64,000 bases of DNA, from assembly GCA_964649715.1 (NCBI GenBank), contig CAZYTH010000003.1, positions 4,713 to 68,712 on the forward strand, written 5' to 3'. The notes under the pieces are model-generated. The model did no database searches, was not told the origin of the DNA, and saw nothing but the letters and a program-made list of their open reading frames with translations. Shown piece after piece: positions 1,826 to 27,087 of the stretch (positions are counted from its first letter, which is position 1; every line of letters starts with the position of its first letter). Both the position numbers and the translations under genes were made by a program. Source of the DNA: an uncultured Candidatus Saccharibacteria bacterium. Its GTDB lineage: Bacteria; Patescibacteriota; Minisyncoccia; Phycocordibacterales; UBA12445.

Positions 1826-3094
1826 TTACTTTGAGATAATATCTTTTCCCCCCATATAGGGCCTCAATACCTCTGGTATTACAACGGAACCGTCTGCTTG
1901 TTGATAATTCTCTAATATAGAAATAAGAATTCTCGGTGTCGCTATGGCTGTATTATTCAAAGAGTGAGCAAATTTCAACTTTCCGTCATCGTCTTTGTAT
2001 TTAATGTTAAGTCTTCTTGTTTGAAAATCATGAAAATAAGAAGCTGAATGAGATTCCCTGTATTTACTATCCGAAGGAACCCAGACCTCAATATCGTATT
2101 TTTTTACCTGACCCTGTCCGAGATCACCTCCACAATTCACAACAACATGATAAGGGATTTTAAGATCCTGCAGAAGTTTCTCTGCATTATTAGTAATCTC
2201 TTCATGTATTTTTACCGAAGCCTCATGACTAGCCTCACACAGAACCACCTGCTCTATTTTCATAAACTCATGAACACGATATATCCCTTTTACATCCTTT
2301 CCATGACTACCTATTTCACGTCTGAAACAAGAAGAAAAAGAAACGAATTTTACAGGAAGTTGTTTTTTTTCCAAAACTTCATTCATATAATATCCCATAG
2401 TTGGAACTTCTGCTGTACCAGCAAGATACATTTCATCCTGAACCTTATATAAATCTTCTTCCCCATGCGGCAAATATCCTGTACCAAAAAAAGATTCTTT
2501 TTTTACAAGTGAGGGACAAAGCATTGGGATAAAACCCCTAGACATCATTTGATCTAAAACATATCTCCAAATAGCAAAACAAAGAGTTACTCCTTCATTT
2601 TTCAAAAAATAACCACGAAAACCGGCGACCTTTGTACCTTTCTCAAAATCAGCAAGATCCAAATCCTCCATAAGCTGAATGTGGTTCTTTGGTACAAAGT
2701 CAAATTTTGGTATCTCCCCCCATGTCTTTAATTCTTTATTTTCAGCGTCAGAAGATCCCTCCGGAACAGACATGTCGGGAATATTGGGAACTTGAAGCAT
2801 AAGTAATCTCCATTTTTTCATCACATCATTCATTCGCTCTTCTTTTTTCTGAAGTTCCTCTTTTAAATTCTTCATCTCAAAAATAAGATCATTTCTTGTC
2901 TGGAGGTCTTGAGCCCCACTAATCTTTGCATTCATTGAATTCTGCCTTGCGCGCATATCGTCAACTTCTTTTATGAGAAAAATTCTATCACCTTCTGCCT
3001 CCAAAAGTTCTTCTATTTTGAAATCTATGCGTTTCTTCCTCGCGGCCTCCTTTATGAGGTCCGAATTTTCTTTAATAAATTTAATATCTAACAT
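1826..3094 (-). CDS. serS: seryl-tRNA synthetase. The likely start is the internal MLDIKFIKEN; the ORF track begins 9 codons upstream.
   Basis: Class II aaRS motifs are present: N-terminal coiled coil, FRREIGSHGKDVKGIYRVHEF, and a GSxxxIxR-like C-terminus. Confidence 0.9.
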   Translation of the reverse strand: MLDIKFIKENSDLIKEAARKKRIDFKIEELLEAEGDRIFLIKEVDDMRARQNSMNAKISGAQDLQTRNDLIFEMKNLKEELQKKEERMNDVMKKWRLLMLQVPNIPDMSVPEGSSDAENKELKTWGEIPKFDFVPKNHIQLMEDLDLADFEKGTKVAGFRGYFLKNEGVTLCFAIWRYVLDQMMSRGFIPMLCPSLVKKESFFGTGYLPHGEEDLYKVQDEMYLAGTAEVPTMGYYMNEVLEKKQLPVKFVSFSSCFRREIGSHGKDVKGIYRVHEFMKIEQVVLCEASHEASVKIHEEITNNAEKLLQDLKIPYHVVVNCGGDLGQGQVKKYDIEVWVPSDSKYRESHSASYFHDFQTRRLNIKYKDDDGKLKFAHSLNNTAIATPRILISILENYQQADGSVVIPEVLRPYMGGKDIISK

Positions 3095-3124: not shown

Positions 3125-4015
3125 ATGGTAGTATCTCTCTCAATGACAAAATTAAGAAAATTAAAGTCGGAGGAAATACCCAAAAGGATACTTGAAATAC
3201 CACAACCACCGAAACAGCTATATATTGAAGGAACAATACCAGATGAAGATGAATATTTATTTTTGGCAGTTGTTGGTTCACGAAAATTTTCAACTTATGG
3301 AAAAGAAGCTTGTGAAAAAATAATCTCAGAATTGTCGGGTCAAAATATCGTAATAGTTTCCGGGCTTGCATACGGGATAGATACTTTCGCCCACAAAAGT
3401 GCAATCAAGTATGGTTTAAAAACAGTGGCATTCCCTGGGTCGGGTCTCTCCAGAAAAGTTCTTTATCCTTCAATGAACAGAAAATTAGCAGAAGAAATAT
3501 TAGTGCAAAAAGGGGCCCTAGTTTCTGAATTTGAACCGGAACAGCCTGCTACAACCTACACTTTTCCACAAAGAAACAGAATAATGGCAGGTATATCAAA
3601 TGCTGTCCTTGTGGTAGAGGCAATGGAAAAATCAGGAACCTTGATAACCGCAAGATTGGCCACAGATTACAACCGCGAACTTTTGGTTGTTCCTGGCTCT
3701 ATCTTCTCTCCAAACTCGGCGGGTTCAAACAAACTTATTAATCAAGGGGCCACTCCTGTGTCCTCTGGCGAAGATGTTTTAAGACAACTTGGAATAGATA
3801 TAGATAGAAAACAGAAAGAATTGAATCTAGATAATCCCGAATTCTCAAAAATCGAAAAAATGATTCTAGGGTTTTTGTCTGTGGAACCACTATTAAGAGA
3901 TGAACTTATAAAAAAAACGGGGCTCACCATAAGCGAAGCGAACACAACACTTTCAATTATGGAAATAAAGGGTCTTATCAAAGAATCTATGGGACAAATA
4001 AGAATGGATTTTTAA
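3125..4015 (+). CDS. dprA: DNA processing protein DprA/Smf.
   Basis: Rossmann-like DprA core (LAVVGSRKFSTYGKEA...VSGLAYGIDTFAH...ITARLA) followed by a C-terminal winged-helix-like tail. Confidence 0.85.
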   Translation: MVVSLSMTKLRKLKSEEIPKRILEIPQPPKQLYIEGTIPDEDEYLFLAVVGSRKFSTYGKEACEKIISELSGQNIVIVSGLAYGIDTFAHKSAIKYGLKTVAFPGSGLSRKVLYPSMNRKLAEEILVQKGALVSEFEPEQPATTYTFPQRNRIMAGISNAVLVVEAMEKSGTLITARLATDYNRELLVVPGSIFSPNSAGSNKLINQGATPVSSGEDVLRQLGIDIDRKQKELNLDNPEFSKIEKMILGFLSVEPLLRDELIKKTGLTISEANTTLSIMEIKGLIKESMGQIRMDF

Positions 4016-10958: not shown

Positions 10959-11064
10959 GAGAATTTTTGTAATTTTAATTGATTATAGATAGATTCTAAC
11001 ACCAAAAATATCTTTTGCAAAAAAACTTTTTTTACTGTATATTTACATAATAAAATTAAAAATT

Positions 11065-11119
11065 GTCGCGGTGGCGGAATGGCAGACCTGCCTGCCGGCA
11101 GGCAGGCGCAATAGACTCG
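11065..11119 (+). pseudogene. partial duplicate of the 5' half of tRNA-Leu(CAA), roughly nt 1-34, interrupted by a 20-nt perfect palindrome.
   Basis: GTCGCGGTGGCGGAATGGCAGAC + CTGCCTGCCGGCAGGCAGGC + GCAATAGACTC. Apart from the insert it matches 11365-11398 with one mismatch. Confidence 0.8.
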
Positions 11120-11121
11120 AT

Positions 11122-11355
11122 ATGTTTTATGTTTACGCAATAAAAAGCATTAAGAGAAAGTATATTTACGTCGGATTGACAAATCATATAGAAAAACGAT
11201 TTAATCAACACAATACAGGCAAAGAGAGGACCACCAAACCTTATCTTCCATACAATTTGATTCACGTAGAAGAATTCAAATTGCGAGTGGAAGCAAGAAA
11301 AAGAGAAAAGTTTCTTAAATCAGGGTCTGGAAAAGAGTATTTGAAATCATTATAG
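11122..11355 (+). CDS. small stand-alone GIY-YIG nuclease-domain protein (UPF0213/YhbQ-like). The ORF-track start at 11071 lies inside the tRNA fragment, so the MFYVYA start is preferred.
   Basis: Y-V-Y motif, Y-V-G-x-T, R...H.N.G and a downstream E (MFYVYAIKS...YIYVGLTNHIEKRFNQHNTG). 78 aa. Confidence 0.75.
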   Translation: MFYVYAIKSIKRKYIYVGLTNHIEKRFNQHNTGKERTTKPYLPYNLIHVEEFKLRVEARKREKFLKSGSGKEYLKSL

Positions 11356-11364
11356 TAATATTTT

Positions 11365-11447
11365 GCCGCGGTGGCGGAATGGCAGACGCAATAGACTCAA
11401 AATCTATCGAGGGCAACCTCATGAGGGTTCGAGTCCCTCCCGCGGCA
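11365..11447 (+). tRNA. tRNA-Leu(CAA), class II with a long variable arm.
   Basis: Acceptor GCCGCGG/CCGCGGC, anticodon stem ATAGA/TCTAT with loop CTCAAAA, long variable arm, T-arm GAGGG-TTCGAGT-CCCTC and discriminator A. No encoded CCA. Confidence 0.9.
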
Positions 11448-11584
11448 CAACAAATCGCTGAAAAGCGATTTTTGTATACGCGGAGCAAGCAAACTTCTTT
11501 GCTTGCGAGGGGGACGAGAAGGGGTTGAGTATATTACGCCGAGCAATGCGAAGGCGGAATACGAAACCCGTACCGAATATGTAA

Positions 11585-11608
11585 TGTTCGAGTCCCTCCC
11601 GCGGCACA
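11585..11608 (+). repeat. direct repeat of the last 22-24 nt of tRNA-Leu (T-loop plus 3' acceptor), about 135 bp downstream of the tRNA. It has the form of an att-like remnant.
   Basis: GTTCGAGTCCCTCCCGCGGCACAA is identical to 11428-11450. Confidence 0.8.
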
Positions 11609-11924
11609 AAAACAAATGGACCGAATGTGAAAACATTCGGTGATTTTGTTTTGTAGGCGTCGGAGGGGCGAGAAAACCGGAAGCGGGTACCGTCGCCGAC
11701 GTAGCAAAGCGAAGTGGCGCACGGTCGCTGAGGCGTAGATCGAGAAATTTTTGTGTAACAAAAATATTCGTGATCGAATCCTCAACCAAAAAACGGGCAG
11801 GCCTCCAATGGCACAATAAAAAACATCTTTCTTTTAAATTTTGTAAACACTAAAAAATATCCGAGCAAGTGAAGTTTTTTTATGCTATTATTTAAATAAT
11901 TAAGAATTAAAAGATAATAAAAAA

Positions 11925-17045: not shown

Positions 17046-17086
17046 TAGACCTGCCTACCGATAGGCCTGCCTGCCGGCAATGACGA
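17046..17086. repeat. GC-rich motif related to the palindrome inserted in the tRNA-Leu fragment.
   Basis: AGACCTGCCTaccgataggcCTGCCTGCCGGCA shares AGACCTGCCT and CTGCCTGCCGGCA with 11085-11100. Confidence 0.6.
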
Positions 17087-24734: not shown

Positions 24735-24811
24735 AGCGGATATACTAACAAAACGTTATTTTTTAGTCAAATTGCCAAAAGACAGACTGAGCAATTATTG
24801 GTGACTTGATA

Positions 24812-24883
24812 TACACACAGAATGGATCGAACCTTCGACCTTTCCTAAGCGAACGGAACACTCTATCGCTGAACTATGTGTGC
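24812..24883 (-). pseudogene. degenerate tRNA-like sequence (72 nt) with several non-canonical features. It may be a tRNA pseudogene or an unusual tRNA.
   Basis: Folds as acceptor GCACACA/TGTGTGT, D-stem GTTC/GAGT with a loop lacking G18G19, anticodon stem TTCCG/AGGAA carrying a G·A mismatch and loop TTCGCTT with U at position 37, and T-arm GAAGG-TTCGATC-CATTC with a G·A mismatch. Confidence 0.3.
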
Positions 24884-25340
24884 AGACCCATAAATCATAG
24901 AGCAAAAAAACACAATAAAGAAAACCCGACAAAATGCCGGGTTTAAAAAAACAAAGACTACTCTTCCTTGAAATTATCAAAAAGGAAGCGTATGCCCTCG
25001 TCGGTGGCAAGAAGGCAAAGCCCCCTCGCGAGAAGAAAACTCTTAAGACCATGGATATCCTCCTTTCCTCGCCAACTATTGACGAGAGAACTAGCCCCAA
25101 ACACCCACCCAATCTCCAGACAAAGAACTTCTAGTCGATTGAGTTCCTTATTGAGTTCCCTGAAGAATCTCTCCTCCTTGTTCTGCATTCAAACACCCCC
25201 CTTCTTTTTCTGTTAATGTTCTAAATACGCCAGTCTTATACACCTAAAAAATTAAAAAGTCAAACAAAAAAAGAACAAACACCACAGAACATCAAAAATA
25301 TTGATTTTAATTTATCTTTTGGTTAGTATAGATATCTAAT

Positions 25341-25411
25341 GGGCCTATAGTATAGCGGTAGAACGCATCCATGGCATGGATGAGGTCGGGGTTCGACTCC
25401 CCGTAGGTCCA
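25341..25411 (+). tRNA. tRNA-Ala(GGC).
   Basis: Acceptor GGGCCTA/TAGGTCC with a G3·U70 pair, anticodon stem CATCC/GGATG with loop ATGGCAT, T-arm CGGGG-TTCGACT-CCCCG. Confidence 0.85.
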
Positions 25412-27087
25412 TAAATAGAGGCAAAACGGGTTTCAAGAAATTGAAATCCGTTTTTGCATTTAAAAATAAGGCTACTATCAGAAATAAAAAGTTCGGAAAA
25501 GATAGTTCTAGCAATTAGCTCTTTTTCTTGTAAATTTGCATTTAAGTAAAAGAATAGGCCATCTTTTATGAGTTCGGAAAGAATTACGACATCTCTAATA
25601 ACTTCCCCCATTGAAACGTCTGATGAAATCTCTTCGTTTTGTATTTCAAGAATCTCAGCATTAAGATTGTCCTCTTCTTCCATGAACGTTTTTGGAGAAT
25701 ATGCTCCCGTCATAAGCAAAGATAATTTATTAGTTCTCAGATATGATAATTTTTCTCTTATTCTTTTCTTTCTACCCTCTCCTTCTTCAATATTTTTAAT
25801 CCTTTTTTCTTCAAATAGCGAGACGTCTTCACTTGTCACAATATTTAAGTTGTTCTTTTCTTCGTCTCTCAACTTTAACATAGACATAAAATCCACAATT
25901 TTTTCTTCCAGAAAATTACCGTTAAAATTTTTCTTAGAATTTTTACAACCTTTAATGCATCTAGAACCATAATACTGGATACCCTTCTGAACATATGGTG
26001 TATATGCACGCCCACACTCAGAACAACGGGCAACGCCACGATAAGGTAACTCTAATTTATTTGTATAACGCAAGCTTACATTCTTCTTCGAGAGTCCTTT
26101 TTGAACTTTATTAAAAAGTTCCTCTGAAATTATGGCCTTGTGACTTTTGCTTGGTATATAAACACCATCACTATTTAAAGTTTTTCCTGTATAAAATTTA
26201 TTTCTGAGTATTTTTTGAACAAGAGTTGCAGTAATTGGTCTGGTGACTTTTTCGATCTTACTCTCGACATCAGTTTCTTCATTTTCCAATATCTCCCCCT
26301 CTGTTCTTCTTCTGCGCATTGGTACTGTCGTCATGCCATGTTCATTAGCCCACCGAGCCAAATCAGCAACGCTCCACTCACCGGTAGTATAATATTCGAA
26401 TAGTTTCTTTACAAAAGGACCCCGAACAGGATCTACCGGCTTATTTTCTGAATTTCCTTCATTTAAATAACCTATCGGAGCCCGATATGTGCAAATCCCG
26501 TCTGCTCGCATTTTTTGAGTAGTAAGCTTAATTTTCTCACTTGTTACCCGAGAATAATGTTCTGCAAACATGCCATCTATGTCCATATGGAGAGCACCCG
26601 AGCTACTTTTCTCATATTTTGCTTGAACAAAACGGAAATCGCATCCATTTTTAATCAACTTACGAATCAAAGTATCATCTGCTTTATTTCTACTGATGCG
26701 ATCCCAACAAAGACAGATAACACCCTTAAAAAATTTCTTACTCAAAAAATAAGTAAGTCTCTGAAATTTTGGTCGGTCTATTCGATATTGGACTAAACCC
26801 TCTTCTGTGAAATTGATATCTTCATCTTGTTTGTAACCAGATTGTTTCTCTGAAATTATTCCGTTATGACAAAAACCTTTTATATCAACGGGGGCAATGG
26901 GCAATTTTTCTTTCTTTGCAAACTTGGAATTTTCGAATTTCTGGTATTCCAAAGAATTTTTCTGTGAATCGGCCTCATCTGTACTCTTTCTGTTGTAAAT
27001 TAAATAACCATCACGATACTTACCGCTCAATATTTCCTTCTCGATATCTTTTTGTCTTTTGTTTATTTGTGTTTTATTTTTTGACAT
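25345..27087 (-). CDS. large serine recombinase (phage-integrase type). The ORF reads through the antisense of tRNA-Ala for its last ~24 codons.
   Basis: N-terminal resolvase domain with the catalytic Ser (YNRKSTDEADSQKNSLEYQ), a recombinase domain, a zinc ribbon (CSECGRAYTPY...C..GC) and a C-terminal coiled coil. Confidence 0.85.
   Translation of the reverse strand: MSKNKTQINKRQKDIEKEILSGKYRDGYLIYNRKSTDEADSQKNSLEYQKFENSKFAKKEKLPIAPVDIKGFCHNGIISEKQSGYKQDEDINFTEEGLVQYRIDRPKFQRLTYFLSKKFFKGVICLCWDRISRNKADDTLIRKLIKNGCDFRFVQAKYEKSSSGALHMDIDGMFAEHYSRVTSEKIKLTTQKMRADGICTYRAPIGYLNEGNSENKPVDPVRGPFVKKLFEYYTTGEWSVADLARWANEHGMTTVPMRRRRTEGEILENEETDVESKIEKVTRPITATLVQKILRNKFYTGKTLNSDGVYIPSKSHKAIISEELFNKVQKGLSKKNVSLRYTNKLELPYRGVARCSECGRAYTPYVQKGIQYYGSRCIKGCKNSKKNFNGNFLEEKIVDFMSMLKLRDEEKNNLNIVTSEDVSLFEEKRIKNIEEGEGRKKRIREKLSYLRTNKLSLLMTGAYSPKTFMEEEDNLNAEILEIQNEEISSDVSMGEVIRDVVILSELIKDGLFFYLNANLQEKELIARTIFSELFISDSSLIFKCKNGFQFLETRFASIYGPTGSRTPTSSMPWMRSTAIL

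Follow-up and report, generated by a model that had tools for sequence, protein, structure and literature searches.

A small GIY-YIG nuclease gene and a palindrome-bearing tRNA-Leu fragment form a recurrent, very probably mobile cassette beside bacterial tRNA genes

The tRNA-Leu(CAA) locus described here lies in a 64,000-nt stretch of contig CAZYTH010000003.1 from an uncultured Candidatus Saccharibacteria bacterium (this whole stretch is called the window, and positions count from its first letter). The locus contains an intact tRNA-Leu(CAA) gene, a gene for a single-domain GIY-YIG nuclease immediately upstream of it, and, further upstream, a partial copy of the 5' part of the same tRNA that is split by a perfect 20-nt palindrome. 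The nuclease gene and the palindrome-bearing tRNA fragment form a cassette that recurs in several bacterial phyla and has an exact empty counterpart in a related locus, L236. The features are as follows.

11015..11043, plus strand: promoter-like site TTGCAA-17-TATATT, from a consensus scan; putatively the native tRNA promoter region, now upstream of the partial copy
11065..11086, plus strand: pseudo-tRNA 5' fragment, part a (tRNA positions 1-22), from alignment to the intact gene
11087..11106, no strand: palindrome CCTGCCTGCCGGCAGGCAGG; the same 20-mer occupies the same kind of site in 78/80 related loci
11107..11118, plus strand: pseudo-tRNA 5' fragment, part b (tRNA positions 23-34), from alignment to the intact gene
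11119..11398, plus strand: 280-nt segment absent from L236 (GAT, the ORF, TAATATTTT and duplicated tRNA positions 1-34), from colinearity with L236
11122..11355, plus strand: GIY-YIG nuclease gene (PF01541), 77 amino acids (aa), catalytic domain only, stop codon TAG at 11353-11355
11365..11448, plus strand: intact tRNA-Leu(CAA), from ARAGORN and Rfam; 95% identical to the L236 tRNA
11449..11585, plus strand: non-coding stretch lying between the tRNA 3' end and its direct repeat, conserved in L236, which has no GIY-YIG gene
11454-11473, plus strand: terminator-like hairpin ATCGCT-GAAA-AGCGAT followed by a T-run, read directly
11586..11612, plus strand: direct repeat of the tRNA 3' end, from the T-loop to the discriminator plus 4 nt, 26/27 identical
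11620-11641: terminator after the 3'-end repeat
11655..11790, plus strand: second, more degenerate copy of a downstream structured unit (..CCGGAAGCGGG..GCTGAGG..CGTGATCGAATCCTC)
17050..17079, no strand: abutting decayed palindrome remnants CCTGCCTACCGATAGG and CCTGCCTGCCGGCA, intergenic

Both ARAGORN and the Rfam tRNA model (59.6 bits) call a single intact tRNA at the locus. Measured start to start, the partial copy lies 300 nt upstream of it, and its two parts match the tRNA at 21/22 and 12/12 positions (blastn-short E ~1e-6). The palindrome is inserted cleanly where tRNA position 22 meets position 23, at the junction of D-loop and D-stem; none is expected in shuffled sequence. Folded as single-stranded DNA (ssDNA), it gives a hairpin of -8 kcal/mol whose 8-bp stem is closed by a CCGG loop. 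It precedes the ATG of the nuclease open reading frame (ORF) by 16 nt; only three bases separate this ATG from the 5' tRNA fragment, and the ORF junction falls at tRNA 34/35. The 9-nt spacer TAATATTTT separates the stop codon from the start of the intact tRNA. Rfam models (E <= 10) matched only tRNA at this locus and in its relatives, with no group I or group II intron. The promoter-like block TTTTGCAAAAAA...TGTATATT is also conserved upstream of the tRNA in L236. The -35 region of this putative promoter coincides with a conserved AT-rich palindrome, TTTTGCAAAA(AA), present at 11010-11025 in the window, at ~2880-2900 in the related locus L066, and in L236.

An initial annotation, made from the sequence alone, had described much of this arrangement. 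The duplication of tRNA positions 1-34 some 300 nt upstream, the intact tRNA that follows, and the direct repeat of its 3' end (11586-11612 versus 11427-11453, E ~2.5e-7) were read correctly. The palindrome reported within the copy is perfect and 20 nt long, but the string given for it, CTGCCTGCCGGCAGGCAGGC, is one base out of register and not itself palindromic; the correct sequence is CCTGCCTGCCGGCAGGCAGG. Likewise a GIY-YIG ORF was rightly recognized, but it encodes 77 rather than 78 aa from the ATG at 11122. The claim that the nuclease N-terminus is made of tRNA sequence has to be withdrawn: every homologue starts at the position of this ATG, so the longer GTG-started ORF (from 11071), whose frame crosses tRNA and palindrome sequence, is an ORF-finder artefact. 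A further palindrome copy had been placed at 17046-17086, where only the decayed half-palindrome pair exists; the 64-kb window contains one intact and one decayed copy, and a second full palindrome was not found in it.

The ORF product matches Pfam PF01541 over residues 1-71 with 59.9 bits (cut-off 22.6, E = 3e-16). Residues Y5, Y16, R26, H30, and E62, which by analogy with I-TevI and UvrC we take to be catalytic, are invariant across 31 aligned sequences, and 16 residues in the alignment of homologues are invariant across phyla. The AlphaFold model (pLDDT 97) has the GIY-YIG beta-beta-alpha-beta-alpha-alpha fold, with strands at residues 2-9, 15-20, and 44-52 and helices at 23-32, 55-66, and 68-75; judged from the sequence and this model, the catalytic domain is intact. 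Pfam and AlphaFold agree that the 77 aa form a single catalytic domain with no DNA-binding domain. Foldseek returned UPF0213, Slx1, I-TevI, and UvrC, with UPF0213 and Slx1 the nearest solved folds; UPF0213 (YhbQ/BH0048) is the top match by both sequence and structure, and the Slx1 match has TMq ~0.7 and a root-mean-square deviation of 1.7 A. There are 388 homologues with 57-74% identity in Bacteroidota, Patescibacteria, and other groups. The exact protein of the window was not on record in the look-up, NCBIfam has no specific model for it, and libraries of defence systems and phage families gave no meaningful match.

We used the neighbouring ParB gene to find relatives of the window and to compare their tRNA-Leu contexts. 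By this gene, the source is a Patescibacterium of the Parcubacteria/Paceibacterota type. L236 encodes a ParB 81% identical to that of the window and a tRNA-Leu(CAA) 95% identical, with neither a GIY-YIG gene nor the palindrome. Its tRNA begins 107 nt from ParB, which is the exact position at which the 5' fragment starts in the window. If the palindrome and the 280 nt from 11119 to 11398 are removed, the window becomes colinear with L236, the upstream promoter-like block included. The boundaries of the 280-nt segment can be rotated anywhere within the 34-nt repeat. Since the remainder of this segment duplicates tRNA positions 1-34, the foreign DNA amounts to GAT, the 234-nt ORF, and ~9 nt (246 nt). 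It is essentially the ORF alone and leaves no room for a promoter, terminal repeats, or a recombinase. Two further relatives, L237 and L241/242, are likewise empty, while L066 (from the same organism as L239/240) is occupied, with junctions that match the window and a nuclease only 60% identical. The cassette is thus patchily present among close relatives.

Scanning one genome per species gave more than 530 loci with this nuclease, of which the best 80 were examined; the counts that follow refer to these. They span Bacteroidota, Patescibacteria, Ignavibacteriota, and Omnitrophota, and recurrence over such a range rules out local decay as the origin of the arrangement. Among the 74 nuclease genes with adequate flank, 64 have a co-oriented intact tRNA-Leu within 200 nt and none has one on the opposite strand at that distance; the anticodons are CAA, TAA, TAG, CAG, and GAG. 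Two arrangements occur, mirror images of each other. In the first (~45 loci, the order also seen in the window), the 5' fragment with its palindrome precedes the nuclease gene, which is followed after 4-25 nt by the intact tRNA. In the second (~24 loci), the intact tRNA and its terminator come first, followed by the nuclease gene and a 3' fragment with the palindrome. The design recurs, again with the identical 20-mer, at tRNA-Lys, Arg, Asn, and Ser genes for GIY-YIG homologues that are more distant. The cassette is also found in tandem arrays and as decayed copies, and at a Thr-Leu(GAG)-Leu(CAG) locus of Cyclobacteriaceae the cassette is found at different tRNAs and in both configurations. 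The cassette is widespread and apparently undescribed: full-text searches of the literature, made with the 20-mer and with GIY-YIG in combination with tRNA-Leu or a palindrome, turned up no account of it.

Several individual loci deserve mention. Arrays of two or three nuclease genes, 90-99% identical and each beside a palindrome-bearing tRNA fragment, occur at L034 (1-958), L028 (2692-3231), L037 (2696-3231), L024 (2682-3228), and L051 (3001-3547). The tRNA-Leu(TAA) cassette of L214 (572-1300) has in-frame TGA codons in its nuclease ORF, suggesting a host that uses genetic code 25; downstream T-arm fragments there are split by a different palindrome, TCCCGCAAGGGCGGGA, resembling the hairpin stem of the NTS repeat of Neisseria. 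At L112 (~800-1000) the tRNA after the cassette lacks an ARAGORN call and appears to contain a long insert just past the anticodon region; this may be a group I intron like those reported in Patescibacteria. Two ARAGORN tRNA-Leu calls, at L069 (3256-3339) and L076 (2837-2918), end in palindrome sequence, so the cassette can generate false tRNA annotations.

The palindrome, or a close variant, is present in 78 of the 80 loci; of 119 copies, 105 have a GIY-YIG gene within 250 nt. All 58 copies that can be aligned on both flanks are clean insertions between two adjacent tRNA positions, with no duplication or loss. They fall at six recurrent sites, all of them loop/stem boundaries of the cloverleaf: GGAA|TTGG in the D-loop and AGA|CGC at the D-loop/D-stem junction, either side of the anticodon loop, and GGG|TTCRA and TTCGA|TYCC in the T-arm. 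Nested and multiple palindromes also occur. The palindrome is a specific and conserved component of the cassette, and plausibly a site for its nuclease. Other hairpins are found as mini-insertions in the same kind of pseudo-tRNA fragment, for example CCTACCGAAGGTAGG, TCCCGATAGCTATCGGGA, and CCTGCGTGCCGAAGGCACG, adjoining the GIY-YIG gene at L005, L016, L021, L029, L032, L046, L050/L064, and L059. These hairpins point to a broader group of small palindromes that behave alike.

The 20-mer is not confined to the cassette. Scans for the exact sequence found it in 35 viral and at least 120 metagenomic stretches (at least 155 unrelated stretches in total), and among the matches listed most copies have neither a tRNA nor a GIY-YIG gene nearby; the palindrome therefore also occurs alone, inserted in DNA of very diverse kinds that includes high-GC phage-like contigs. 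Clustering of the ORFs at the 155 listed loci identified GIY-YIG as the only protein family that recurs close to the 20-mer (9 loci, median distance 81 nt). It revealed no hidden transposase or other recurrent protein there, the remaining clusters being distant phage structural genes. Most solo insertions are clean, and the junctions are biased towards purine|pyrimidine. A preference of solo copies for the apices of older hairpins was considered and rejected as a general rule, the signal being weak (at least 8/10 flank positions paired in 2.6% of sites versus 0.5% in the null). Target-site duplications were rejected as well, since direct repeats of 8 nt or more (11% of solo sites versus 0.8% in the null) are confined to simple tandem-repeat DNA. 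Separately, exact solo palindromes were seen within intergenic short tandem repeats (ggtgagagg..., tctcgtctctcgct, cgtacctcgtaaat), several of them in high-GC phage-like contigs (L081 at 10596 and 11254, L083 at 1660, L089 at 8396, L110, L118 at 429, and L161 at 435), and some have direct repeats of 8-17 nt on both sides.

The pseudo-tRNA fragments carry traces of recombination. Left of the palindrome, the fragment matches the local tRNA with 100% identity in 28 of 38 loci, lineage-specific acceptor stem included, while the nucleases differ by 25-40% between loci. Such identity beside divergent nucleases implies repeated conversion or re-insertion. In a few loci (L016, L073) the fragment derives from a different tRNA-Leu. 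Nearest-neighbour nucleases come from the same phylum in 77% of cases (42% in the null) and are associated with the same anticodon in 47% (20% in the null).

The 3'-end repeat downstream of the tRNA has a history of its own. Because this repeat and the 137 nt that precede it (11449-11585) are conserved in the GIY-less L236, as is the whole segment 11449-11612, it is not part of the nuclease cassette, and by this comparison the segment is older than the cassette and independent of it. No GIY-YIG remnants were found between the tRNA and the 3' repeat, a region that also holds the hairpin GCAAGCAAACTTCTTTGCTTGC and degenerate tRNA-like pieces. In the clade of the window the tRNA is followed by structured units of ~100-125 nt, from one to six per locus, at 11449-11800 in the window, 3250-3705 (minus strand) in L236, 3327-3950 in L066, 2060-2200 in L237, and ~2300-2597 (minus strand) in L241. 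The consensus of the unit is GGGAGAGAATCGAARGCCGGAAGCGGG-[hairpin]-GGGAGCTGAGGNGGGGTCGCG-[variable hairpin]-TGTGACCGATTCTCTCC. Its 3' strand copies the T-loop and T-stem of the tRNA, with or without the acceptor strand, and its 5' strand is complementary to that copy; in the window the repeat at 11586-11612 makes up such a 3' strand. The outer helix co-varies, and RNAalifold on five sequences gave 26 pairs, 8 of them with compensatory changes. Units are present in relatives that have no GIY-YIG gene, and one unit in L066 carries the palindrome. No Rfam family matched the unit, whether here or in relatives, and it may represent a small RNA gene or else a second repeat that targets tRNAs. Elsewhere in the window there are two divergent tRNA-Ala genes ~450 nt apart, at 24811-24884 (minus strand, CGC) and 25340-25412 (plus strand, GGC).

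The anatomy of the locus, the recurrence of the cassette, the existence of an empty allele, the clean insertion of the palindrome where loops meet stems, its exclusive coupling to GIY-YIG genes, and the conservation of the catalytic domain are shown by these data, and we regard this description as practically certain. These observations also settle what the initial annotation had proposed about the origin of the locus. Its suggestion of a small composite mobile cassette is supported in that the arrangement recurs at tRNA-Leu in 80 genomes, has an empty site, and forms arrays, but the 3'-end duplicate that it included is a separate entity, being present in L236. The comparison of related loci that it called for gave alleles with and without the cassette, the empty site in L236 matching exactly. 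Random interruption or decay does not account for the palindrome, as nearly every locus has the same 20-mer.

We consider it very probable that the cassette is selfish and mobile. The reading that we favour, and judge to be reasonably probable as a whole, is that of a selfish nuclease-plus-hairpin cassette that would use tRNA genes as portable homology. Its model is the Ssn nucleases, such as SsnA of Neisseria meningitidis, which are single-domain GIY-YIG enzymes that cut ssDNA and bind the hairpin repeats by which their own gene is flanked (Chenal et al. 2025, PMC11893778). The cassette consists of a 77-aa nuclease gene with almost no DNA of its own, an intact tRNA on one side, and a palindrome-bearing pseudo-copy on the other. 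The native tRNA promoter would read through the pseudo-5'-fragment into the nuclease ORF and the tRNA, so that the ORF would be expressed from the tRNA promoter, probably as the leader of a shared transcript, and the 34-nt duplication would keep the tRNA functional. The minimal GIY-YIG domain may recognize its cognate hairpin, or hairpin/loop junctions in unwound DNA, and cut nearby, whether on ssDNA or on double-stranded DNA (dsDNA). That the palindrome is the site of the enzyme seems a little better than an even bet. Host recombination between the pseudo-copy and tRNA genes would then repair the breaks. The possible outcomes are a pseudo-copy kept identical to the local tRNA, tandem arrays, precise deletion of the cassette, or the spread of copies to further tRNA-Leu genes or to incoming or recipient genomes, with the conserved tRNA providing the homology arms. 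This homology-guided route is the more tentative part of the proposal, and we hold it at somewhat less than even chances. The palindrome would be a separate, very small repeat that spreads in trans to many sites.

Several observations weigh against this reading. We scanned for the published SRM pattern, HGTCWYN(0-2)YYVSBRHN(0-5)WNVSBRGN(0-2)RNCYNB (PMC11893778), with a regular expression that matches the NTS controls; it is not enriched, with 3 matches in 428 kb of GIY-YIG loci versus 1.2 in shuffles, and 1 of them within 500 nt of a GIY-YIG gene. Whereas the NTS is oriented, the palindrome is a perfect dyad whose flanks are not conserved, and a restriction-like mode on dsDNA is just as possible as action on ssDNA. 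Most solo palindromes among the matches listed have no GIY-YIG gene within the few kb available, so action in trans is something that we assume. If the nuclease cuts tRNA-Leu DNA, the intact tRNA beside it would be exposed to cleavage as well. The breakpoints between ORF and tRNA fragment vary, lying at positions 24-50 on the 5' side, and the duplication sometimes extends beyond the tRNA, so insertion may proceed by homologous recombination or by a long staggered target duplication. As for vehicles of transfer, searches for the nuclease family found no match on plasmids and a single match in phage records (36% identity, in a Rhizobium phage), and the cross-phylum identity of up to 84% depends on correct binning of metagenome-assembled genomes.

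Alternative explanations differ mainly in what they make of the nuclease. It could be a domesticated host function, for example in the control of recombination or transformation, kept beside tRNA-Leu for expression, with the pseudo-tRNA hairpin as a regulatory or binding site. The strong purifying selection seen in the 16 residues invariant across phyla and the strict orientation and spacing relative to the tRNA agree with this, and SsnA of Neisseria has itself been proposed as domesticated, controlling recombination or transformation (PMC11893778). However, a host function would not be expected to be patchy among very close relatives with an exact empty site, to accumulate tandem arrays, decayed copies, and pseudo-tRNA debris, or to sit at different tRNA-Leu isoacceptors and in two opposite configurations at one Cyclobacteriaceae locus, and we consider it unlikely. 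We rate no higher the possibility of a classical homing endonuclease that cuts duplex tRNA-Leu in the D-/T-loop region and is copied by double-strand-break repair, in which case the palindrome would be a co-transferred protective disruption rather than a binding site. Presence/absence alleles fit such an enzyme, as do palindrome positions within the most conserved tRNA segments (GGAA|TTGGTAGA|C and GGTTCGA|ATCC), an ORF junction at 34/35, the classical tRNA-Leu intron site, and the tandem arrays expected if a cut intact copy is repaired off the pseudo-copy. A protein of 77 aa with no DNA-binding domain is nevertheless unlike I-TevI or the Seg enzymes, the intact neighbouring tRNA would remain cleavable, and an immunity scar does not explain the same palindrome at Lys, Arg, Asn, and Ser tRNAs and at more than 150 non-tRNA sites.

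The palindrome and the nuclease gene might also be two unrelated elements sharing one landing pad, the palindrome being moved by another enzyme that tolerates or prefers dispensable pseudo-tRNA and the GIY-YIG gene having arrived independently. That most palindromes among the matches listed are solo, and that other hairpin types occur in these pseudo-tRNAs (L005, L021, L032, L046, L214), would be natural consequences of this; the presence of the palindrome within the cassette at 98% of GIY-YIG loci would not. Nor does any other protein family recur near it at the 155 listed loci, and the 20-mer is invariant over the whole range of the nuclease family, including the members associated with tRNA-Lys, Arg, and Asn, so that we think this less likely still. 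Integrase scars from insertion and excision, the reading that the initial annotation had offered, or a degenerate group I intron with a homing endonuclease gene, are highly improbable. Att sites typically show partial duplicates of a tRNA, 34/35 is the site of the tRNA-Leu group I intron, and a 3'-end direct repeat does exist, but the locus contains no integrase and no att logic, its 246 nt of foreign DNA are essentially ORF only, and the cassette duplicates the 5' rather than the 3' part of the tRNA. The 3' repeat is also found in the GIY-less L236, no group I intron or other Rfam family matches at E <= 10, and the tRNA is intact and uninterrupted; both candidates were rejected on these grounds.

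If the cassette is a selfish nuclease-plus-hairpin element as we propose, it would explain why small genes annotated "GIY-YIG nuclease family protein", fragments of tRNA-Leu, and mis-called tRNAs recur beside tRNA genes in Bacteroidota and Patescibacteria. It would also represent a new mode of persistence for a selfish gene, an ORF-only insert probably driven by a tRNA promoter, in which the target is saved by duplication and not by splicing. A minimal nuclease would be tied to one exact 20-mer from phage-like contigs to several phyla, making the origin and spread of a palindromic repeat directly testable, and the enzyme, should it be Ssn-like, is a candidate for an ssDNA nuclease that is sequence-specific and has a new, defined site. 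In its boldest form, which we think rather unlikely, the proposal would make the palindrome the smallest known mobile DNA unit, a hairpin cut from and ligated into ssDNA at loop/stem junctions by a 77-aa GIY-YIG protein that works in trans. The nuclease gene would itself be a parasite reduced to its ORF and would cross phyla with universally conserved tRNA genes as both homology arms and promoters, the tRNA being regenerated by partial duplication, and the two together would constitute a new class of transposase-free, nuclease-driven elements and a source of new sequence-specific ssDNA nucleases. For annotation, the tRNA fragments that carry the palindrome are best marked as pseudogenes, with the conserved ATG taken as the ORF start.

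The cassette shares parts of its design with several known systems. Slx1, a structure-specific nuclease that acts on branched and stem-loop DNA, depends on Slx4 and a RING domain; for UPF0213 proteins no connection with tRNA genes or with a palindrome is known, and the sequence identity of the cassette protein to Slx1 and UPF0213 is only 27-31%. With the I-TevI and Seg homing endonucleases ("intronless homing") the cassette has in common the GIY-YIG domain, occupied and empty alleles at a defined conserved target, and a probable spread by break repair via flanking homology. It differs from them in that there is no DNA-binding domain and no intron, intein, or phage housing, the cassette being chromosomal, and in that the target is saved by partial duplication instead of splicing. 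Integrative tRNA elements with tyrosine integrases likewise preserve the tRNA after insertion by a partial direct duplication; they are marked by an integrase encoded in the insert and an att repeat of the 3' part of the tRNA, neither of which belongs to the cassette. The cassette has no recombinase and one 234-nt ORF, may duplicate the 5' half, and carries a conserved palindrome in the duplicate. A tRNA-Leu group I intron would interrupt the tRNA at 34/35 with intron RNA; the tRNA here is uninterrupted, and no intron model matches at E <= 10.

The REP/BIME repeats with their RAYT proteins and the IS200/IS605 elements also couple short dispersed palindromes to a small enzyme gene that they flank, with ssDNA hairpins as the likely substrate. 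In the cassette the repeat is only 20 nt long and occurs across phyla, and the enzyme is a hydrolytic GIY-YIG nuclease, not a Y1/HUH transposase, and therefore cannot itself carry out covalent strand transfer. Yeast mitochondrial GC clusters are mobile, GC-rich, and very short organellar palindromes. Comparable GC-rich palindromic clusters are described among the organellar palindromic repeats of Volvox (PMC2670323). What these organellar clusters share with the cassette is the selfish insertion of very short GC-rich palindromes into AT-rich intergenic DNA and into each other; they are lineage-specific families and are not known to have a dedicated nuclease gene, whereas the cassette 20-mer is one exact sequence that several bacterial phyla share and that goes with a family of nucleases.

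The closest known system is Ssn with its NTS/SRM repeats. Ssn proteins are single-domain GIY-YIG proteins of less than 150 aa, and the cassette protein has 77 aa and one domain; a flanking 20-50-nt hairpin-forming inverted repeat, another mark of the family, is present at 78/80 of the loci examined. Both systems combine a single-domain GIY-YIG protein of less than 100 aa, broadly distributed in bacteria, with an architecture like that of an insertion sequence, in which a hairpin-forming repeat of 20-50 nt flanks the gene and is found at many further sites, which for the cassette 20-mer are the viral and metagenomic stretches. The hairpin sequence of Ssn is other than that of the cassette, which is a perfect dyad without an oriented flank. 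Peculiar to the cassette are the embedding of the repeat in a tRNA pseudo-copy and the locking of the gene to tRNA genes; the term "tRNA" has 0 occurrences in PMC11893778. The likeness between the two lies in their design, where it is strong.

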